Assembly (NCBI GenBank): GCA_019637175.1
Contig: JAHBWD010000010.1
Coordinates: 126,715 to 190,714 of the forward strand
Direction of reading: 5' to 3'
DNA: 64,000 bases
Origin: Labilithrix sp.
GTDB taxonomy: Bacteria; Myxococcota_A; Polyangia; Polyangiales; Polyangiaceae
The notes under the pieces are model-generated. The model saw nothing but the letters and a program-made list of their open reading frames with translations, did no database searches and was not told the DNA's origin. This document shows positions 7,820 to 30,157 of this stretch, in pieces. Each line of letters begins with the position of its first letter. Position 1 is the stretch's first letter. A program made the translations under genes and the position numbers.

Positions 7820-8923
7820 GTGCCGTACACCTACATGGCACGACATCTGCTCTCAGTGCCAGACGTGGCCCGTACAGCGCTCCACCTCCTCGTCGTCGCC
7901 GCGCTCGTCGGGTGCGCTCCCGCCGATCCGATCGACGACGACGCCGAATCGGAAGACGCGCTCGCCTCGCACGCGATCTCCGGATACGCGGCGGTCGTTC
8001 CCGCGGAGCGCGTCGTCACCACCGCGCCCCTCCGCGTGCAGCTCGGAGAGCCCATCGTCGCCGGGCGCCGGCTCATGATCCTTCGACGCCTCGTGTTCCG
8101 CGGCGCGCCCGCGAAGCTCGTCGTCGACGCCGACAGCATGATCACCGCGCTCGTCGCCGACAGCGCGCTCGATCAGGGAGCGCGCGCGGCGCGACCGACC
8201 GACGCGCTCGATCAGTCGCCCTTCGCGTCGAGCCTGGCCACGCTCGCGGCGAGCGACGCGACGCTCGCGAGCATCGACGCCGACGCGCCGCTCGCCGCCG
8301 CCGAGCCGTTCGCGTTGACGATCGACATGTGTCAATCGCGCCGCCTCTGGGACGCAAAGCTCTTCGAATGGGCCGTCGCGCTCTCGAACCAGCTCGGCAA
8401 GCCCGTTCCCGTCGGCATCGCGATGACGGGGGGCTGGGCCAAGGCGCACCCCGACGAGCTCGGGCGCATCGACGCGTGGGCGCGTGAGGGCAAGCTCGCG
8501 ATCACGTGGATCAACCACTCGAGCACGCATCCGCTCCACTGCCGCGACGCTTCCTGCGCGCGCGCCGAGTTCCTCACCGCGAGCGGCGTCGACTTCGACG
8601 AAGAGGTCATGGGCCTCGAGCGATCGCTCCTCGCGCGCGGCCTCCTGCCGTCGGTGCTCTTTCGCTTCCCCGGCCTCGTCCACGACGCGCGCCGGCGCGG
8701 CCAGCTCTCGCGCCTCTCGCTCATGCCCCTCGACGCCGACGCGTGGATCGCGAAAGGTCAGCCCATCAAGCCGCGCGGCGTCGTCTTGGTCCACGGCAAC
8801 GGCAACGAGCCGCCGGGCATCACGCGGTTCTTGTCGCAAGTGGAGACGCGCGCGGACGCGCTTCGCGCCGGGCGGAGCGCGCTCGTGTCGCCGCTCCTCG
8901 CCGCGCCCACGCCTCCTCGCTGA
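7820..8923 (+). CDS. hypothetical lipoprotein, possible polysaccharide deacetylase (NodB-like) fold
   Basis: LVVAALVGCAP lipobox. TIDMCQS and INHSSTHP motifs loosely resemble NodB motifs 1 and 2. The start could be MARHLL at 7835. Confidence 0.4.
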   Translation: MPYTYMARHLLSVPDVARTALHLLVVAALVGCAPADPIDDDAESEDALASHAISGYAAVVPAERVVTTAPLRVQLGEPIVAGRRLMILRRLVFRGAPAKLVVDADSMITALVADSALDQGARAARPTDALDQSPFASSLATLAASDATLASIDADAPLAAAEPFALTIDMCQSRRLWDAKLFEWAVALSNQLGKPVPVGIAMTGGWAKAHPDELGRIDAWAREGKLAITWINHSSTHPLHCRDASCARAEFLTASGVDFDEEVMGLERSLLARGLLPSVLFRFPGLVHDARRRGQLSRLSLMPLDADAWIAKGQPIKPRGVVLVHGNGNEPPGITRFLSQVETRADALRAGRSALVSPLLAAPTPPR

Positions 8924-8926
8924 TCG

Positions 8927-9595
8927 ATGCGCGGCGCCGAGCTCCTCGCGTGGCTCGCGGCTCTCCCACCGGACGATCGCGACCGCGCCGTCGAGGAGCA
9001 CCTCCACCTCGCCGATCGCGCTCACGCCTCTTCCGCTCCCGGCGAGCACCTCGTCGGCTACCACGCGAGCGGCGTCGCGCCGATCGTTCGCGCGGTCCTC
9101 GAGATCCCGATCGTCGCCGAAGACGTCTTCGTCGACCTCGGGTCGGGGCTCGGCAAGGTCGTGAGGCTCGTCGAGCTCCTCACGGGCGCGAGGGCCCGCG
9201 GCGTCGAAGTGCAAGGCGCGCTGGTCGATCACGCGCGTGACGCCGCCGCTCGTGACGGAAGCGACGTCGCCTTCACGCACGCCGACGCGCGTGACGCCGC
9301 GCTCGACGACGGCACCGTGTTCTTCATGTACACGCCGTTCACGGGCCACGCGCTCGCCGACGTCACGGAGCGGCTGCTCGCCGTCGCCGAGCGGCGCGCC
9401 ATCGTCGTGTGCTGCCTCGGCTTCGATCTCGATCGTCACGCGCCGTCGCTCGTTCGCCGAGACTTCGACGCCTTCTGGCTGAGCGTCTACGACAGCGTCG
9501 TCGCGGACGTTCCCCCGCGTCCACGCACAGCGCGATCGATCCTCGCCGGCGCCGCCGCCGACGCGGTCGCGCTCGGGCGCGCGCTCTCGCGGTGA
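8927..9595 (+). CDS. SAM-dependent methyltransferase-like protein
   Basis: VDLGSGLGKVV glycine-rich motif; 222 aa; ATG 4 nt after the upstream stop. Confidence 0.5.
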   Translation: MRGAELLAWLAALPPDDRDRAVEEHLHLADRAHASSAPGEHLVGYHASGVAPIVRAVLEIPIVAEDVFVDLGSGLGKVVRLVELLTGARARGVEVQGALVDHARDAAARDGSDVAFTHADARDAALDDGTVFFMYTPFTGHALADVTERLLAVAERRAIVVCCLGFDLDRHAPSLVRRDFDAFWLSVYDSVVADVPPRPRTARSILAGAAADAVALGRALSR

Positions 9596-9600
9596 CGCGC

Positions 9601-10218
9601 TCAGCGACGCGGAGCGCCCGCCGCCAGCGCGGCGGCGGCCGCCAGCTTGTGCTCGGCTCGCCAGGGCGGCCCGATCGATCGGCCCATCGCGGCGAGGAGC
9701 TCGTCGAGGTCGCGGCCGAGCCCGGTCGCCGCGTCGTGAAACACGCGCTCGCGGTCGTACCAGCGCACCGACCACCCCCGCGCCTCGGCGGCCGCCGCGA
9801 GCGCCTGCCGATACATGACGGTGTCGGCGAAGGTCTGCGCGCGGTTGTCGGCGATGCGCTCCTCGACCGTCGGCGGAAGCTCCGGGCACACGCGGATCGC
9901 GACGCCCGCGATCGGCGCGGGCACCGCCGCGGCGAGCGCGTCGAGGCCCTCGCGTGCGCCGCGCGCCGCGGCCGCGCGCACGCGCTCCACGAGCTTCACG
10001 GCGTCGGCGAGCGAGATCCGCCGCGCGCCCGGGGTGCCGAGATAGCGACCCACCGCCCACGATCCCTCGTGGTGGTGCGGGTGCGTCGGCAGACCGTGCG
10101 TGAGGTCGATCCGCCGGCGATCGAGCAGCTCACCGCGCGCGAGCGTGACGAGCACCGCCGAGTTGCCGTGCTCGACGACGCCGACCGTCGCGGCCGGAGG
10201 CCTTCGTGCGCGCGTCAC
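9601..10218 (-). CDS. hypothetical protein
   Basis: 205-aa ORF with good GC3. Its ATG overlaps the stop of the DUF1697 gene (ATGA coupling). Confidence 0.45.
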   Translation of the reverse strand: MTRARRPPAATVGVVEHGNSAVLVTLARGELLDRRRIDLTHGLPTHPHHHEGSWAVGRYLGTPGARRISLADAVKLVERVRAAAARGAREGLDALAAAVPAPIAGVAIRVCPELPPTVEERIADNRAQTFADTVMYRQALAAAAEARGWSVRWYDRERVFHDAATGLGRDLDELLAAMGRSIGPPWRAEHKLAAAAALAAGAPRR

Positions 10219-10836: not shown

Positions 10837-11097
10837 TCAGCTCTTCGGCGGGCAGGCCGCGAGGCACTCGGCCTTGCGCTGCACGCAGGCGGCTTCGTCC
10901 GTCGCCGCGGCCTCCGCGAGATCGTGGCATTCCTTGGCGAGACCGCCTTCGTCTTCGTGTGGATCGCACGCGCGATCGATGGCGTCACACGTCGGTCTGG
11001 TGGAGGGTGATGTCGGCACCAAAGGAGGTTTCTCGCTCGCGTTGCACGCGAAGACGAGCAGCGCGATCGCCGCGACGAGCATGGTCGGAAGCTTCAT
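10837..11097 (-). CDS. small Cys/His/acidic-rich secreted lipoprotein (possible metal-binding)
   Basis: MKLPTMLVAAIALLVFACNAS signal with lipobox. The mature peptide has about 8 Cys plus His/Asp/Glu clusters. Its ATG overlaps the rpsD stop. Confidence 0.5.
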   Translation of the reverse strand: MKLPTMLVAAIALLVFACNASEKPPLVPTSPSTRPTCDAIDRACDPHEDEGGLAKECHDLAEAAATDEAACVQRKAECLAACPPKS

Positions 11098-11708
11098 CAC
11101 AGCCTCTGCGAGTAGAACTCGACGACGAGCTGCACGCGCAGCGGAAAGAGCACCGACGTCTCGTCCGGCAGCGCGATCACGGAGGCGCGCCGGGCGTCGC
11201 GATCGACCTCGAGCCACGGCGTCTGGAACGTGTCGGCGACCGCGAAGCCCGACGCGACGGCGCCGAGGCTCTTGCTGCGCTCCCGCAGCGAGACGACCTG
11301 CCCCTCGTCGACGCGGTAGCTCGCGACGTCGACGCGCTCGCCGTCGACGATCACGTGCCCGTGGTTCACGAGCTGGCGCGCCGCCGGGATGGTGCGCGCG
11401 AACCCTGCGCGGAAGACGACGTTGTCGAGGCGCCGCTCGAGCAGCTCGATCAGCTTGTGACCGGTCGTGCCCGCGCTCGCGCGCGCCTCGATCATGAGGC
11501 GGCGAAGCTGTCGCTCCGACACGCCGTAGCCCATCCGCACCTTCTGCTTCTCCATCAAGCGGAGCGCGTACTCGGTGAGCTTCTTTCGGCTCTGCCCGTG
11601 CTGGCCGGGGGGATACGGCCGCTTGTCGATCTTCTTCGTCGACAGGCCGGGCAGCTCCACGCCGAGCGCCCTCATCTTCTTCACGCGCGGTCCTGTGTAA
11701 CGACTCAC
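11097..11708 (-). CDS. rpsD: 30S ribosomal protein S4 (Cys-less, zinc-independent form)
   Basis: MSRYTGPRVKK...PGQHG...LDNVVFRAGFA...EFYSQRL is clear S4. GTG start with GGAGG Shine-Dalgarno 6 nt upstream. No Cys residues. It is not in an rpsM-rpsK-rpoA context. Confidence 0.85.
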   Translation of the reverse strand: MSRYTGPRVKKMRALGVELPGLSTKKIDKRPYPPGQHGQSRKKLTEYALRLMEKQKVRMGYGVSERQLRRLMIEARASAGTTGHKLIELLERRLDNVVFRAGFARTIPAARQLVNHGHVIVDGERVDVASYRVDEGQVVSLRERSKSLGAVASGFAVADTFQTPWLEVDRDARRASVIALPDETSVLFPLRVQLVVEFYSQRL

Positions 11709-11787
11709 GGCGTTCCTCCGTCAGCCGGCCGGCCGACGAAGGCCTTCGTGTCGTGATGCACCATCGGATCTCCTCGCCCCTTCCGTA

Positions 11788-11816
11788 TTGATAATGAAAA
11801 CCGTTTTCAATATCTC
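11788..11816. promoter_or_regulatory. AT-rich palindrome TGAAAAC-CG-GTTTTCA (Zur/Fur-box-like) in rpsD upstream region
   Basis: ATTGATAATGAAAACCGTTTTCAATATC is an isolated AT-rich inverted repeat in a roughly 70% GC genome. It lies about 80-110 nt upstream of the rpsD start and resembles Zur boxes (TGAAAATGATTTTCA). Confidence 0.35.
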
Positions 11817-11850
11817 CCGGAGAGACGGCCGCGTCAAGCCCGAAGGCGAT

Positions 11851-13296: not shown

Positions 13297-14634
13297 TCAG
13301 CGGTCGTGCTTCGGGATCCCGCCCGCGGGGGCGACGTCGCGGATGCGCGCGGACGCGGCCTTGTAGCGAGCCTTCATGTCGGCGGCGAGCTCCGGCCTCG
13401 AGCGCCACAGATCCTGCTTCTCCTGCGGATCCGCCGCGAGGTCGAAGAGCGAGTATCGAACGTCGTTGCCGAAGGCGATGATCTTCGTCGTGCCGTGAAC
13501 GAGCGCGCGGCGGCGCTCGTTGTACTCGTCTTCCGGCAGATCGACGACGACGTCGCGCGCCGGCGCCGGCGCGCCGTCGAGCTCGGCGACGAGGCTCGCG
13601 CCCGGCAGCTCGACGGAGACGCCGAGCAGCGCGGCGAACGTGGGCGCGAGATCGACGTGTCCGCGCGGCTCGTCGATGGTCCGCGCCGCCCGGCCGGGCA
13701 CGTAGAAAAAGAGAGGCACGTGCACGAGCTCCTCCCAGACCTCGTGCGCGTGGCGCGTCATCCCGTGCTCGCCGAACGCCTCGCCGTGATCGGCGGTGAC
13801 GACGACGATCGTGCGCGCCGCCCACGGCTGCGCGTCGACGAAGTCGAGCAGCTTGCCGATCCACTGATCGGTGAAGAACACCTCCTCGTCGTAGAGATCG
13901 CGCGCGCGCTTGCCGAAGTGCGGGCTCTCCGCGTGCGTTTTGTACTCGTCGTGCGGGTCCATGTAGTGAAACCACGCGAGGAAGGGCTTGGGGCCCTGCG
14001 TGCCCTGTTTGCTCGCGACCTCACCGAGCATCTCGATCGCGAGCGGCGTGAGCTTGTCGCTCGTGACGTAGGGATCGGTCTGGTAGTCGAAGGTGATCCC
14101 CTTGACGATCCGCCAGTCGGAGAAGCCGTGCTCGAAGCCCGACTGCTTCGGGCCGAAGTACGCGTGGGCGTGCCCGCCGACGCAGGGAACGCCGGCGCTC
14201 CCGAACGCCGTGCACACGAAGTCGGTCTTCGTCAGGTAGCGCGTGAAGAACACGCCGGTGCGCGAGAGCTCCGACGGATAGCGGCCCGTGAGCAGGCCCG
14301 CGAGGCTCTTCGACGTGTAGCTCGAGGTGGAGTACGCGCGCGTGTAGCGGGTCGACTTCGCGTGGAGCGCCGAGAGCCGCGGCGCGATCGGGCGCTCGTA
14401 GCCGGCCCACGGCATGTCGGCGCGCAGGCTGTCGACGGTGATGAGCAAGATGTTCCACGGCGCGTCGGTGAGGCTCGCCGTCTTCGCGGCGCCGTCGCCG
14501 CCGTCGTGCAGCGACGCGTCGGCGTGCGCCGACGCGGCCTTCTCCGCCGGAGGCGGAGGTGCCTTCTGCTCGCACGAAGAGCACGCCGCGAGGCTCATCG
14601 CCGCGGCGATCGCGAGCGGTCCGAACCGGATCAT
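13297..14634 (-). CDS. sulfatase-like hydrolase/transferase lipoprotein (alkaline phosphatase superfamily), lacks canonical C/S-x-P-x-R
   Basis: Start MIRFGPLAIAAAMSLAACSS (M141 of ORF 13297..15054). Sulfatase-family motifs ILITVDSLRAD...TADHGEAFGEHG are present. The FGly site is replaced by SSYTSKSLAGLLTGRYP. Confidence 0.7.
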   Translation of the reverse strand: MIRFGPLAIAAAMSLAACSSCEQKAPPPPAEKAASAHADASLHDGGDGAAKTASLTDAPWNILLITVDSLRADMPWAGYERPIAPRLSALHAKSTRYTRAYSTSSYTSKSLAGLLTGRYPSELSRTGVFFTRYLTKTDFVCTAFGSAGVPCVGGHAHAYFGPKQSGFEHGFSDWRIVKGITFDYQTDPYVTSDKLTPLAIEMLGEVASKQGTQGPKPFLAWFHYMDPHDEYKTHAESPHFGKRARDLYDEEVFFTDQWIGKLLDFVDAQPWAARTIVVVTADHGEAFGEHGMTRHAHEVWEELVHVPLFFYVPGRAARTIDEPRGHVDLAPTFAALLGVSVELPGASLVAELDGAPAPARDVVVDLPEDEYNERRRALVHGTTKIIAFGNDVRYSLFDLAADPQEKQDLWRSRPELAADMKARYKAASARIRDVAPAGGIPKHDR

Positions 14635-14703
14635 CGCGGTCACCTTGCCGATTCTTTTCCGAAAGGCCAAGCAAATCATAGCGATGTGGTAGAAAATCCG
14701 GCA

Positions 14704-17001
14704 GTGCGCTGGGTCCGTCGAGTCTTCCTCACGATCTCGGGTGCGGCCTTCGCCGCGCTCTTCGTGGCGATGCTCGAGAGCATCACGATCGGGCGCGCGC
14801 TCTCGGCGGCCGATCAGCGTCCGCCTGGGATCTTCACGCTCCTCGGCAGCGCCGCCGGCGTCATCTTCCCGGTCGCGATGATCGTCGGGCTCGCGGTGGC
14901 GCCGCTCGCGATGCTCGTCGAGCCCGAAGGCAGCACGACGATCGTCCAAGACATCGCCGCGATCCGCGGCCAGCGCGCGCGCAGGCTGCGCGCAGCCGCG
15001 CTCACGCCGCTCCTCGGCCTCGCGATCTTCGTCGCGACCGTCGGCGCGGCGCACTTCGGGCGCGCGCTCATGGTCGCGAAGCGGCCCGTCGAGAGCGGCC
15101 TCTCGATGGGCATCTTGACCGTGGGGCTGTCGCTCGTGATGACCGCGGTCGCCCTCGCGATTCTGCCGACGCTATGGCGCCTCCTCGCGCGGCTCGCCAA
15201 CGTCTCGCGCTACGCCGATCCGCTCGTGACCGGCTCGACCGTCGCGGCCCTCGCGCTGCTCCTCATCGTCATCGGCGTTCGCACCGGCGACACCGGAGGC
15301 ACCGGCGGCGTCGCCGGCGTCGGCATCTTCGGCGTGCTCGCGCGCCCCGAGCTCGACCTCTTGCCCGTCGTGCACGCGCTCGGCATCGCGGCGTCGGCCT
15401 ACCTCGGCGGAACGCTCTCGCGCGGGCGGTTCGTCCGCGAAGCGTCGATCGCCGGCGGCGTCGCGGTGCTGTTGCTGTTCTTCCTCTGCGTGCGCTCGTC
15501 GTCGTCGCTCGGGCGCGAGCCCGACGTCGTCGTCGGCCTCGAGCGCCACGCTTCGCTCGGGCGCGTCTCTCTCGGGATCCTGCGCCGCGCGACCGATCGC
15601 GACGGCGACGGACACTCGGCGAGCTTCGGCGGCGCCGACTGCAACGACAACGACCGCTCGATCAACCCGGAGGCGATCGACATCCCGGGCAACGGGATCG
15701 ACGAAGACTGCTCCGGCGAAGACACCCCGCACGTCGTCGTCGCCCAGCCGGATCCTCCCCCGGTGAAGGATCCCACGCCCGCAGAGCCGGCGAAGCCGCG
15801 CCGCACCTTCAACGTGATCCTCGTCACCGTCGACACGCTCCGCTACGACCTCGGCTTCGCCGGCTACAACAAGCCGGTCTCCGCCAACATCGACGCGCTC
15901 GCCGCCAAGAGCGCCGTCTTCGAGCGCGCGTACTCGCTCTCCTCGTATACCGCCAAGAGCCTCGGGCCGCTGCACATCGGCCGCTACCCGAGCGAGGCGC
16001 TACGCGACGGCGATCACTTCACGACGTACTACCCGGCGAACACGTTCGTCGCCGAGCGCATCCACGAGATCGGCACGCGCAACGTCGGCGGGCATTGCCA
16101 CTACTACTTCATGTGGAACACGGGCTACGCGCAGGGCTTCGACGTCTGGGACACGTCGGCCATCGCGCCAGGCATGGCCGACAACGACTCGAGCATCACG
16201 AGCGAGCGCATGAGCGATCTCGCGATCAAGCTGCTCTCGCGACCGGAGAACGTCACGCCTCCGCCCCTGCCGAGCGGCGAGCCGCGCCGCTTCTTCATGT
16301 GGTTTCACTACTTCGATCCGCACGCGCAGTACGTGAGGCACGCGGGCGCGCCCGACTTCCGCGCGATCCCCGGCGGCCAGCCGGGCCGATGGATCTACGA
16401 CGAAGAGGTCTGGTTCACCGACAAGCACATCGGCCGCGTCCTCGATCACGTCGCGTCGCAGCCCTGGGGCGCCGACACGGCGATCATCATCACCGCCGAT
16501 CACGGCGAGGCCTTCGGCGACCACGGCGTGCGCACGCACGGCCACGAGCTCTACGAGCCGCTCGTGCGGGTGCCGCTCGTCATGTACGTCCCCGACGCCA
16601 AGCCGCGTCGCGTCGGGATCAAGCGATCGCACATCGATCTGGCGCCGACGATCATGGACCTCGTCGGCGCGCCGCCGGCGCCGCCGGGAGAGCTGCGCGG
16701 CAAGACGCTGCTCACCGACGTCTACGCCGCGTCGGACGAGACGCTCGAGGAGCGCGACGTGTACCTCGACATGCCGCAGGGCCCGATGAACGACATGCGC
16801 CGCGGGATCCTCACGGGCAAGACGCCGGGGATGAAGCTGCTCCACTTCGGCGGCAAGCGCTACCAGCTCTACGATCTCGCCGCCGATCCGGGAGAGACGA
16901 ACGATCTCTCCGAAGATCCGGAGAAGTTCAAGCCGGTGATGGATCGCCTGCAACAGCTCCGCGCGGGCCTCGCCGAGGTCGCCATCGGCGCGCGCAAGTG
17001 A
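14704..17001 (+). CDS. membrane-anchored sulfatase-like hydrolase/transferase with MopE-like metal-binding motif
   Basis: GTG start, then a multi-TM N-terminal domain, then GADCNDNDRSINPEAIDIPGNGIDEDCSGED (Myxococcales putative metal-binding motif), then a catalytic domain paralogous to 13297..14634 (ILVTVDTLRYD...SSYTAKSLGPLHIGRYP...TADHGEAFGDHG). The 5' part of ORF 13279..17001 is shadow. Confidence 0.65.
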   Translation: MRWVRRVFLTISGAAFAALFVAMLESITIGRALSAADQRPPGIFTLLGSAAGVIFPVAMIVGLAVAPLAMLVEPEGSTTIVQDIAAIRGQRARRLRAAALTPLLGLAIFVATVGAAHFGRALMVAKRPVESGLSMGILTVGLSLVMTAVALAILPTLWRLLARLANVSRYADPLVTGSTVAALALLLIVIGVRTGDTGGTGGVAGVGIFGVLARPELDLLPVVHALGIAASAYLGGTLSRGRFVREASIAGGVAVLLLFFLCVRSSSSLGREPDVVVGLERHASLGRVSLGILRRATDRDGDGHSASFGGADCNDNDRSINPEAIDIPGNGIDEDCSGEDTPHVVVAQPDPPPVKDPTPAEPAKPRRTFNVILVTVDTLRYDLGFAGYNKPVSANIDALAAKSAVFERAYSLSSYTAKSLGPLHIGRYPSEALRDGDHFTTYYPANTFVAERIHEIGTRNVGGHCHYYFMWNTGYAQGFDVWDTSAIAPGMADNDSSITSERMSDLAIKLLSRPENVTPPPLPSGEPRRFFMWFHYFDPHAQYVRHAGAPDFRAIPGGQPGRWIYDEEVWFTDKHIGRVLDHVASQPWGADTAIIITADHGEAFGDHGVRTHGHELYEPLVRVPLVMYVPDAKPRRVGIKRSHIDLAPTIMDLVGAPPAPPGELRGKTLLTDVYAASDETLEERDVYLDMPQGPMNDMRRGILTGKTPGMKLLHFGGKRYQLYDLAADPGETNDLSEDPEKFKPVMDRLQQLRAGLAEVAIGARK

Positions 17002-29392: not shown

Positions 29393-30059
29393 TCAGAAGT
29401 CGCCACGAAGGTACTCCTTGAGGCGCCACGTGCGGCCCGTCGGGTGATCGACGACGACGCCTTCCTGACAGCGGATCGTGCGTCGCTTGTCGCCGCGCAT
29501 CCCGCTGCCCACCTGACCGCGGCGATCGGCGGCGCGCGACGCTTCGGCGTGCGCTCGCGCCCCCTCTTCGAGGCGCGCCGCGAGCCGCGCGCGCGCGATC
29601 GCGCGATTGCGGTGCTGCGATCGCTCGGTCTCGCAGTGGACCGAGAGCCCGGTCGGCACGTGGACGAGATCGATCGCCGAGCACGTCTTGTTGCGGTGCT
29701 GCCCGCCGGCGCCCGAGCCGCGCGTCGCGCGCCACGCGAGATCGCGCGGGTCGACGCTGACGGCGATGCCCTCCTGCTCCGGCAGGACGGCCACGGTGAT
29801 CGTGCTCGTGTGAACGCGGCCGCGCCGCTCGCCCGGCGGGATGCGCTGCCAGCGATGACCGCCGGCTTCGTCGGCGAACGCCTCCGCGACGCCCTCCCCG
29901 CTCACGCGCAGGATCGCGAGCCCGGGTTGATGATCGACGAGGGCGATCTCAAAGACGCCTCCGCTGCGCGCGCCTCTCGTAGATCGCCATCTGCTCGACG
30001 ACGAGGGCCTTGGCGTCGGCGCCGCCCTCGGCGGCGCGGATCTCGACGATGATGCTCAT
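29393..30059 (-). CDS. RF-H-like class II peptide-chain release factor paralog (no domain 1) requiring a programmed +1 ribosomal frameshift
   Basis: Frame 0 (ATG 30057-30059, SD GGAGG) gives MSIIVEIRAAEGGADAKALVVEQMAIYERRAQRRRL then UGA. The +1 frame continues EIALVDHQPG...GSGAGGQHRNKT... to the stop at 29393. The junction is colinear with RF2 domain 2 (EIRAGAGGTEA...WAERRGF|KTEII). Shift site GGAGG-CGT-CTT-TGA-G matches the prfB site AGGGGG-UAU-CUU-UGA-C. Confidence 0.75.
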
Positions 30060-30157
30060 GATGTGCCTCCTTCGAATCTCCACTTCTGACGCAGCACGAC
30101 CGGAGCGCCCGCCTCGAGCGGGCACGGCTCACGGGAACGCGTAGGGAGAGCGCGAGG

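Follow-up and report, generated by a model that had tools for sequence, protein, structure and literature searches.

To our knowledge, the well-studied cysteine-less alternatives to ribosomal proteins are all zinc-sparing and under the control of Zur. Those of B. subtilis, M. tuberculosis and S. coelicolor (L31, L33, L36, S14, S18, L28 and L32) are Cys-less duplicates of zinc-ribbon ribosomal proteins with an AT-rich palindrome of the Fur family placed over the promoter, and their repression is presumably relieved by metal depletion. Ribosomal protein S4 (uS4) lies outside this classical set. It is known in a zinc-ribbon (C+) and a ribbon-less (C-) form (Chen, Roberts & Luthey-Schulten, 2009; PMC3087516), and in the myxobacteria So ce56 and M. 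xanthus a C- S4 encoded outside the alpha operon accompanies a C+ S4 encoded within it (Chen et al., 2009; PMC3087516). Here we describe an S4 gene of the ribbon-less form in a 64,000-nucleotide stretch of Labilithrix sp. (contig JAHBWD010000010.1, positions 126,715 to 190,714; hereafter the window), where a stand-alone, Cys-less rpsD paralog is preceded by a palindrome of Fur-family type and followed by the gene of a small Cys/His-rich lipoprotein. We consider it probable, if well short of certain, that this gene encodes an alternative uS4 controlled by a regulator of the Fur family, most likely the iron sensor Fur.

The S4 gene (11097..11708, minus strand) encodes 203 amino acids between a GTG start and a TGA stop, and its product is 100% identical to NCBI entry MBX3187472.1, labelled 'MAG: Labilithrix sp.' (MAG, metagenome-assembled genome). 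It is a full-length uS4, matching in Pfam both the Ribosomal_S4 N-terminal domain (PF00163, E 9e-24) and the S4 domain (PF01479, E 1e-18), and it scores above the NCBIfam equivalog cut-offs of TIGR01017 (rpsD_bact; 234 bits against 177) and NF003717 (242 against 116). The initial annotation had taken it for a stand-alone S4 without cysteine and outside the alpha operon, and this was found to be so: there is no Cys among the 203 residues, none of S13, S11, RpoA and L17 is encoded nearby, and no ribosomal protein gene occurs among the 37 larger open reading frames (ORFs) of the window that were scanned. The gene is flanked upstream by a class-III aminotransferase and downstream by the lipoprotein and a DUF1697 protein. 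Its product has the same N-terminus (MSRYTGPRVK.MRALGVELPGLS) and C-terminus (YSQRL) as the So ce56 protein named 'C-(IV)_out' in the alignment of Chen et al. (2009), and shares with the C-(IV) proteins of So ce56 and M. xanthus the lack of zinc-ribbon cysteines and a place outside the alpha operon. It belongs to this known out-of-operon, Cys-less C-(IV) class of myxobacterial S4. What differs is that the regulation of the class was left open by Chen et al. (2009), whereas here a conserved Fur-family box and a linkage to heme operons are found across the Polyangia. The clostridial C-(V) S4 is likewise an additional S4 that has no Cys and is encoded away from the alpha operon, but it belongs to another sequence subclass, is reported to be induced in sporulation and has no metal box (PMC3087516).

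Pendulispora, Chondromyces, Sorangium and a large number of Polyangia MAGs were found to have orthologs of 203 amino acids, with identities of 67-91% (69-74% for the window S4 against the Sorangium, Chondromyces and Pendulispora copies). The loci collected for comparison are numbered here from L001. A scan of contigs contributed five Polyangia loci, its other matches being canonical S4 genes of other phyla that were set aside. When the C+ protein of So ce56 was used as query, S4 proteins of 209 amino acids with four cysteines (Cys4) were retrieved throughout the Polyangia. In Sorangium sp. So ce854 both forms lie on the one chromosome (CP150352.1) about 6.5 Mb apart, the C+ gene (L036) within the order L36-S13-S11-S4-RpoA-L17 and the C- gene at L024. 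Aligned with C+ S4, the C- proteins lack C9, C12, C27 and C32 together with six residues between them, and the two forms are 47-49% identical. The proposal that the window gene is an alternative S4 paralog is thus supported by related genomes whose alpha operon encodes a Cys4 S4 as well; the C- uS4 would presumably be incorporated into 30S subunits.

Upstream of the gene lies a palindrome whose inner part, AATGAAAACCGTTTTCAAT, occupies 11793-11811 and whose extended 12-1-12 form, GATAATGAAAAC-C-GTTTTCAATATC (11790..11814, no strand assigned), has arms that are complementary at 11 of 12 positions. It had been singled out as the only palindrome of its kind in the area, and it is indeed unique in the 64 kb even when three mismatches are allowed (chance expectation 0.16) and falls within a local GC minimum (0.55 against about 0.70). 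A consensus scan of the gene's strand returned one sigma-70-like promoter, against 0.0 expected from shuffled sequences. This predicted promoter (11809..11837, minus strand) consists of a -35 element TTGACG (11837-11832), a 17-nucleotide spacer and a -10 element GATATT (11814-11809), and the palindrome starts inside the predicted -10. An operator over the -10 is the classical position for a repressor. The palindrome is therefore predicted to overlap the promoter and, judged by its sequence and conservation, appears to be a genuine operator, conserved and belonging to the Fur/Zur/PerR type.

The conservation of the box was followed across 13 Polyangia S4 loci, in 11 of which it heads the S4 operon (the window, L001, L002, L003, L004, L020, L021/22, L023, L024, L026 and L027), the genes upstream being unrelated. 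The reference used was WTGAAAATNATTTTCAW, the 17-mer FUR box of delta-proteobacteria obtained by Rodionov et al. (2004; PMC545781) from the upstream regions of feoAB and fur. Over the 275 kb of these loci, 2, 8 and 3 sites were found at 0, 1 and 2 mismatches to it, compared with 0 in shuffles. The Polyangia boxes thus lie within 0-2 mismatches of a consensus that was drawn from other delta-proteobacteria and not from Myxococcota. The 17-bp core in the window (11794-11810) has two symmetric mismatches, and the boxes of L020 and L027 match perfectly. An exact-pattern search for the window box in the first Polyangia loci had returned nothing, because the boxes of the orthologs differ at the centre; sites were found by the degenerate scan. 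The box is present more often than chance would allow, with 13 sites against 0 in shuffles, and it recurs before orthologous S4 genes whose surroundings are not syntenic. The box shares with the published delta-proteobacterial one its form as a 17-bp palindrome and its association with iron-acquisition genes, but the definition of the latter comes from feoAB and fur of Desulfovibrio, Geobacter and Desulfuromonas, and no ribosomal protein gene belongs to those regulons (PMC545781).

Two arrangements can be distinguished among these loci. In the Labilithrix-like L001, L002, L003 and L027 the box, ACTTGAAAATC(G/A)(T/C)TTTCA(A/T), lies 32-36 nucleotides before the S4 start, and the genes upstream of it are unrelated to those of the window. 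In further Polyangia loci it is located at a greater distance upstream, heading an operon that contains or ends with S4. The order is box, small 4-Cys protein and S4 in L004; box, 148-amino-acid protein and S4 in L023 (Pendulispora); two boxes, 214-amino-acid protein, a methyltransferase of the leucine carboxyl methyltransferase (LCM) family and S4 in L024 (Sorangium); and box, two small proteins, peroxiredoxin and S4 in L026.

It is the gene content of such operons that points to heme and iron. In the two closest relatives (L021/22 and L020) S4 is the distal gene of a box-headed heme operon. The operon of L021/L022, whose S4 is 91% identical to that of the window, is tightly packed and runs from the box through HmuY, an HExxH protein of the MXAN_6640 family, an LCM-like methyltransferase and a small membrane protein to S4, while the box of L020 heads a heme ABC transporter, HemS/ChuX, a peroxiredoxin, a membrane protein and S4. 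Downstream of S4 in L004 there is a heme oxygenase gene without a box of its own. In both L001 (20273-20289) and L027 (20228-20250), a second conserved site resembling the box was found some 10 kb away from S4, within the divergent promoter of a DUF2271-x-x-DUF4266-DUF3570 cluster; proteins of the DUF2271/DUF3570 type are ApbE-flavinylated extracytosolic electron-transfer proteins and were linked to iron reduction and assimilation by Meheust et al. (PMC8238504). Box context was sampled in about 335 kb of Polyangia loci, a partial sampling holding at least 15 boxes, and none of these adjoins a zinc-uptake gene, a COG0523 gene or a gene for another C- ribosomal protein. The initial annotation had called the palindrome Zur-box-like and had proposed control by zinc limitation through Zur. 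The first part stands insofar as the box appears to be a conserved operator of the Fur/Zur/PerR type, very similar to Zur sites and equally so to the delta-proteobacterial FUR consensus, but its context in this lineage is one of heme and iron. With boxes at HmuY, at the heme ABC transporter with HemS and at the flavinylation cluster, and with no recurrence of the palindrome at zinc-related genes in the loci sampled, zinc is probably the wrong metal. The locus parallels the classical Zur-regulated C- paralogs in its architecture but would in this respect differ from them, the regulon being one of heme and iron rather than of znuABC and COG0523 and the sensor probably Fur.

Further support comes from the second rpsD of M. 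xanthus, MXAN_6805, which carries the annotation 'Putative Fur box' in the supplement of Perez et al. (PMC9548883). There it is raised by log2 2.23 and 1.81 at the two times sampled in co-culture. A putative Fur box is likewise annotated for the heme cluster MXAN_1314-1321, which is raised by about log2 2 at both times, and the zinc ABC binding protein MXAN_2951 at the late point only (PMC9548883). In all four of the iron-scavenging 'tan' strains of Dziewanowska et al. (2014; PMC3986340), expression of MXAN_6805 is 6-37 fold higher, beside hemin transport genes (3-43 fold) and myxochelin genes (8-55 fold), and FurA (MXAN_3702) is the demonstrated repressor of the myxochelin genes (PMC11388931). 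MXAN_6805 is comparable to the window gene in encoding an S4 without the Cys ribbon outside the alpha operon, with a putative Fur box and co-induction with heme and siderophore genes, but its neighbour is a putative hydrolase and not a lipoprotein. In the literature searched, it appears in supplementary tables only, is absent from main text and is never analysed, and its annotation in such a table is the sole prior hint of a link to Fur. No prior report was found in that literature of C- S4 being linked to a Fur-type box across the Polyangia, of its physical fusion to heme-uptake operons, or of a Cys6-His lipoprotein family recruited to the same box.

The second gene of the window operon encodes this lipoprotein, of 86 amino acids (11097..10840, stop at 10837, minus strand; NCBI MBX3187471.1). 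The TGA of S4 (11099-11097) and the ATG of this ORF (11097-11095) have one base in common (TGATG), and the product has a signal peptide, a lipobox (MKLPTMLVAAIALLVFA followed by C, Cys18), seven Cys, two His and 13 Asp+Glu, so that the overlap of S4 with a small secreted Cys/His/acidic-rich ORF, as first described, was confirmed. Among 21 members of the family, at least 90% retain Cys18 of the lipobox, and by this reading of the sequences the protein is a predicted lipoprotein. At E <= 1e-3 this small family comprises 71 representatives; C37, C44, C57-H58, C71, C78 and C82 are invariant together with the lipobox Cys, and many members have His-rich C-terminal tails, for example AHDHDH. The protein has no match in Pfam or NCBIfam. 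AlphaFold2, run on an alignment of 19 sequences, predicts a three-helix bundle with a core confidence score (pLDDT) above 90, and a Foldseek search of this model against the PDB gave no match. The spacing of the six Cys would allow them to link the helices by disulfide bonds instead of binding metal.

S4 and the lipoprotein had been suggested to be expressed together. As a conserved pair this was rejected, since homologs of the lipoprotein never adjoin S4, and the coupling is therefore specific to this lineage. What remains is that the lipoprotein family is conserved and is itself associated with the box. In L028 and L029 TTGAAAATGGTTTTCAT precedes a DUF2325 gene with the lipoprotein gene 4 nucleotides after it, in L033 TTGAACATGACATTCAA lies 20 nucleotides before the lipoprotein gene, and weaker box sites are present at the homologs of L030-L032. 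This independent linkage of the homologs to the box supports the reading of the window palindrome as an operator, and the window operon would thus join two independent members of one regulon, with the lipoprotein as a candidate for a periplasmic part in the response to metal. A different Cys-rich lipoprotein, of 115 amino acids, is encoded in L020 (11326-11673, minus strand) about 2 kb from the S4 operon, with a degenerate box (four mismatches) just upstream of it (11735-11751).

Under control by Fur, the locus could be expected to operate as follows. A sigma-70-type promoter would serve a two-gene operon of Cys-less uS4 and then the Cys/His-rich lipoprotein, its -10 and start region being covered by a palindromic Fur-family operator of 17-25 bp. 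With iron in sufficient supply, dimers of Fe(II)-Fur would occupy the box and RNA polymerase would be blocked. When iron or heme is scarce, Fur would come off and the operon would be transcribed with the rest of the regulon, which in the Polyangia would include HmuY, an HmuTUV-like ABC transporter, HemS, peroxiredoxin, the LCM-like methyltransferase, the flavinylated electron-transfer cluster and the lipoprotein family. The metal-free uS4 would then presumably replace, or join, the Cys4 (zinc-ribbon) uS4 of the alpha operon in the 30S subunit. Both the identity of the regulator and the inducing metal are proposed here from the context of the box and the M. xanthus data. No Fur, Zur or PerR gene was found in the collected loci by tblastn.

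A number of points weigh against iron as the signal. There is no iron gene beside S4 in the window, the window core departs from the WTGAAAATNATTTTCAW consensus at both of its innermost positions, and L005 and Chondromyces (L025) are without the box. That this MAG, too, encodes a Cys4 S4 is a presumption from its relatives. MXAN_6805 is 39% identical to the window S4 (and 41% to a Sorangium C+ S4), so its behaviour has the value of an analogy and not of orthologous evidence. Iron control of an S4 that lacks a zinc ribbon is also without an established rationale. Finally, the actinobacterial Zur sites of M. tuberculosis and S. coelicolor have almost the same sequence as the box, that of the window being nearly identical to experimentally defined M. 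tuberculosis sites such as Rv2059 TTATTGAAAATCATTTTCGACAA (PMC3087516, Additional File 3), and an extended box, TTGAAAATNNNTTTCATTATCA, directly precedes two ZnuA genes in unrelated metagenome contigs (L078, 4961-4982, reverse complement; L128, 4617-4638). These last two points are what would be expected of a Zur regulon, in which Zn-Zur binds the box and the Cys-less S4 is made under zinc limitation, replacing the zinc-ribbon S4 and sparing or mobilising its zinc. The His-rich tails of some lipoprotein homologs would fit such a regulon, and the exchange of a C+ for a C- protein follows the logic of classical Zur regulons with their C- L31, L33, S14 and S18 (PMC3087516). The metagenome scan with TTGAAAATNNNTTTCATTATCA, whose matches were mostly in low-GC, unrelated taxa, also placed it before a FUR-family gene (L044), an imelysin (L118) and an OprB porin (L123). 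One DNA word appears to serve Zur and Fur regulons in different lineages and, as it stands before znuA as well as fur, sequence alone cannot assign the metal. The assignment made here was based on lineage-specific gene context and on expression in M. xanthus, and on both counts Zur fares poorly: in the roughly 335 kb of Polyangia loci sampled, boxes head heme-uptake operons and none of them adjoins zinc-uptake or COG0523 genes, and the M. xanthus paralog tracks iron genes and not the zinc ABC binding protein. In addition, Chen et al. (2009; PMC3087516) scanned the genomes of their survey with Zur profiles from actinobacteria, Bacillus and gamma-proteobacteria without finding sites near S4 paralogs, and the delta-proteobacterial Zur boxes ATGCAACNNNGTTGCAT and TAAATCGTAATNATTACGATTTA are unlike the FUR box (PMC545781). 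Control by Zur is, for these reasons, regarded as rather unlikely.

A sensor of the PerR type, or another Fur-family sensor of peroxide or heme, would make the locus an oxidative-stress module in which a Cys-free S4 replaces a peroxide-sensitive Cys4 S4. Peroxiredoxin (AhpC-TSA) genes within the S4 operons that the box heads in L020 and L026 are consistent with this, as are the presence of PerR homologs in some Polyangia (PMC12754779), the rise of katB together with MXAN_6805 in the tan variants (PMC3986340) and the control of the L33B and L36 paralogs of S. coelicolor by sigmaR and not Zur (cited in PMC3087516). The published PerR boxes (TTATAATNATTATAA and its delta-proteobacterial variants) are, however, unlike this box, the window operon is without an antioxidant gene, and genes for heme capture, import and degradation are typical targets of Fur; this makes a PerR-type sensor very improbable. 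It could also be argued that the gene is an ordinary housekeeping S4 and the AT-rich palindrome incidental, a product of chance or the terminator of the aminotransferase gene. A stand-alone rpsD is the normal arrangement in many phyla, as seen in the Bacillaceae loci L006-L008, and the palindrome is found just 37 nucleotides past the aminotransferase stop. The terminator was ruled out, because there is no terminator-like structure at the palindrome and a hairpin formed from its arms would have a loop of a single nucleotide. The box is moreover kept before orthologs with unrelated upstream genes, its chance expectation is essentially zero, and the alpha operon of relatives encodes a Cys4 S4 of its own, which leaves next to no likelihood for a housekeeping S4 with an incidental palindrome.

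Returning to control by Fur, several rationales for iron regulation of this S4 can be put forward as possibilities. In these organisms the Cys4 site may be loaded with iron or mismetallated; starvation for iron, with the oxidative or chelator stress that attends it, may damage the zinc ribbon; the S4 paralog may have an extraribosomal regulatory role; or it may have been carried along after horizontal acquisition into iron islands. A more far-reaching version, in which iron, not zinc, governs an exchange of ribosomal proteins in the Myxococcota and Fur derepresses the metal-free uS4 along with heme uptake, would imply either a Cys4 uS4 that contains Fe or Fe-S in vivo or is otherwise disabled when iron runs short, with remodelling of the ribosome belonging to the iron-sparing response, or else an extraribosomal role of the paralog in the control of the heme operons that contain it, and we consider it unlikely.

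Some of the proteins that accompany the C- S4 are of interest in themselves. The LCM-like methyltransferase is its most constant neighbour in the Polyangia (L001 10674-11459; L002; L003 10652-11458, a weak PF04072 match; L021 3978-4823; L024 9071-9859), though not in the window, and could modify the S4 paralog or the ribosome. Two uncharacterised families, of about 77 and about 148 amino acids, provide the first genes after the box (L020 2952-3185; L004 3385-3639; L023 9463-9909; L020 3224-3563). Members of the shorter family have four Cys and the motif GVLHVT.G.LTIRLQ.EVVASI.ETLGEAL. No Pfam or NCBIfam match was obtained for the 4-Cys protein, the 148-amino-acid protein or the membrane protein. 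In L003 a tandem partial duplication (7917-8130 and 8669-9859) takes in the box, the opening ~59 codons of the C- S4 gene and the histidine kinase beside it.

The 5' leader of the S4 mRNA in the window (11705..11789, minus strand) is described with low confidence. It has a Shine-Dalgarno sequence, GGAGGA (11719-11714), that is paired in a hairpin (11742-11715; fold z = -2.3), and a 19-codon upstream ORF, MVHHDTKAFVGRPADGGTP (11764-11705, minus strand), the TGA of which overlaps the GTG start of S4. Short ORFs are located at the same place before the C- S4 of Sorangium and Chondromyces. Translational coupling of the upstream ORF to S4 was given little weight, because an overlapping TGA is automatic for ATGAG/GTGAG starts. 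A search of the leader against Rfam for riboswitches and other elements gave a sub-threshold chance match only.

Elsewhere in the window, a short release-factor-like gene with PCRF and RF-1 domains (29393-30060, minus strand) is split by what looks like a +1 frameshift at CTT TGA G (near position 29954), with GGAGG 4 nucleotides upstream. This is a programmed signal of the RF2 type in a protein of PrfH size, but the frameshift could equally be an indel of the MAG. Two divergent sulfatase-family genes occupy 13297-17001, of which the one at about 15100-17001 has a MopE-type putative Cu-binding motif.

If the C- S4 of these bacteria is indeed under the control of Fur and iron, and in some species physically joined to heme-uptake operons, metal-dependent remodelling of the ribosome would extend to iron. 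This would also raise the question of what metal is bound by the Cys4 uS4, or for what reason that protein fails, under iron starvation. For the Polyangia, the analysis yields a usable operator motif and a first sketch of the regulon, one that takes in the Cys6-His lipoprotein, the 4-Cys protein and the LCM-like methyltransferase among its uncharacterised small proteins.

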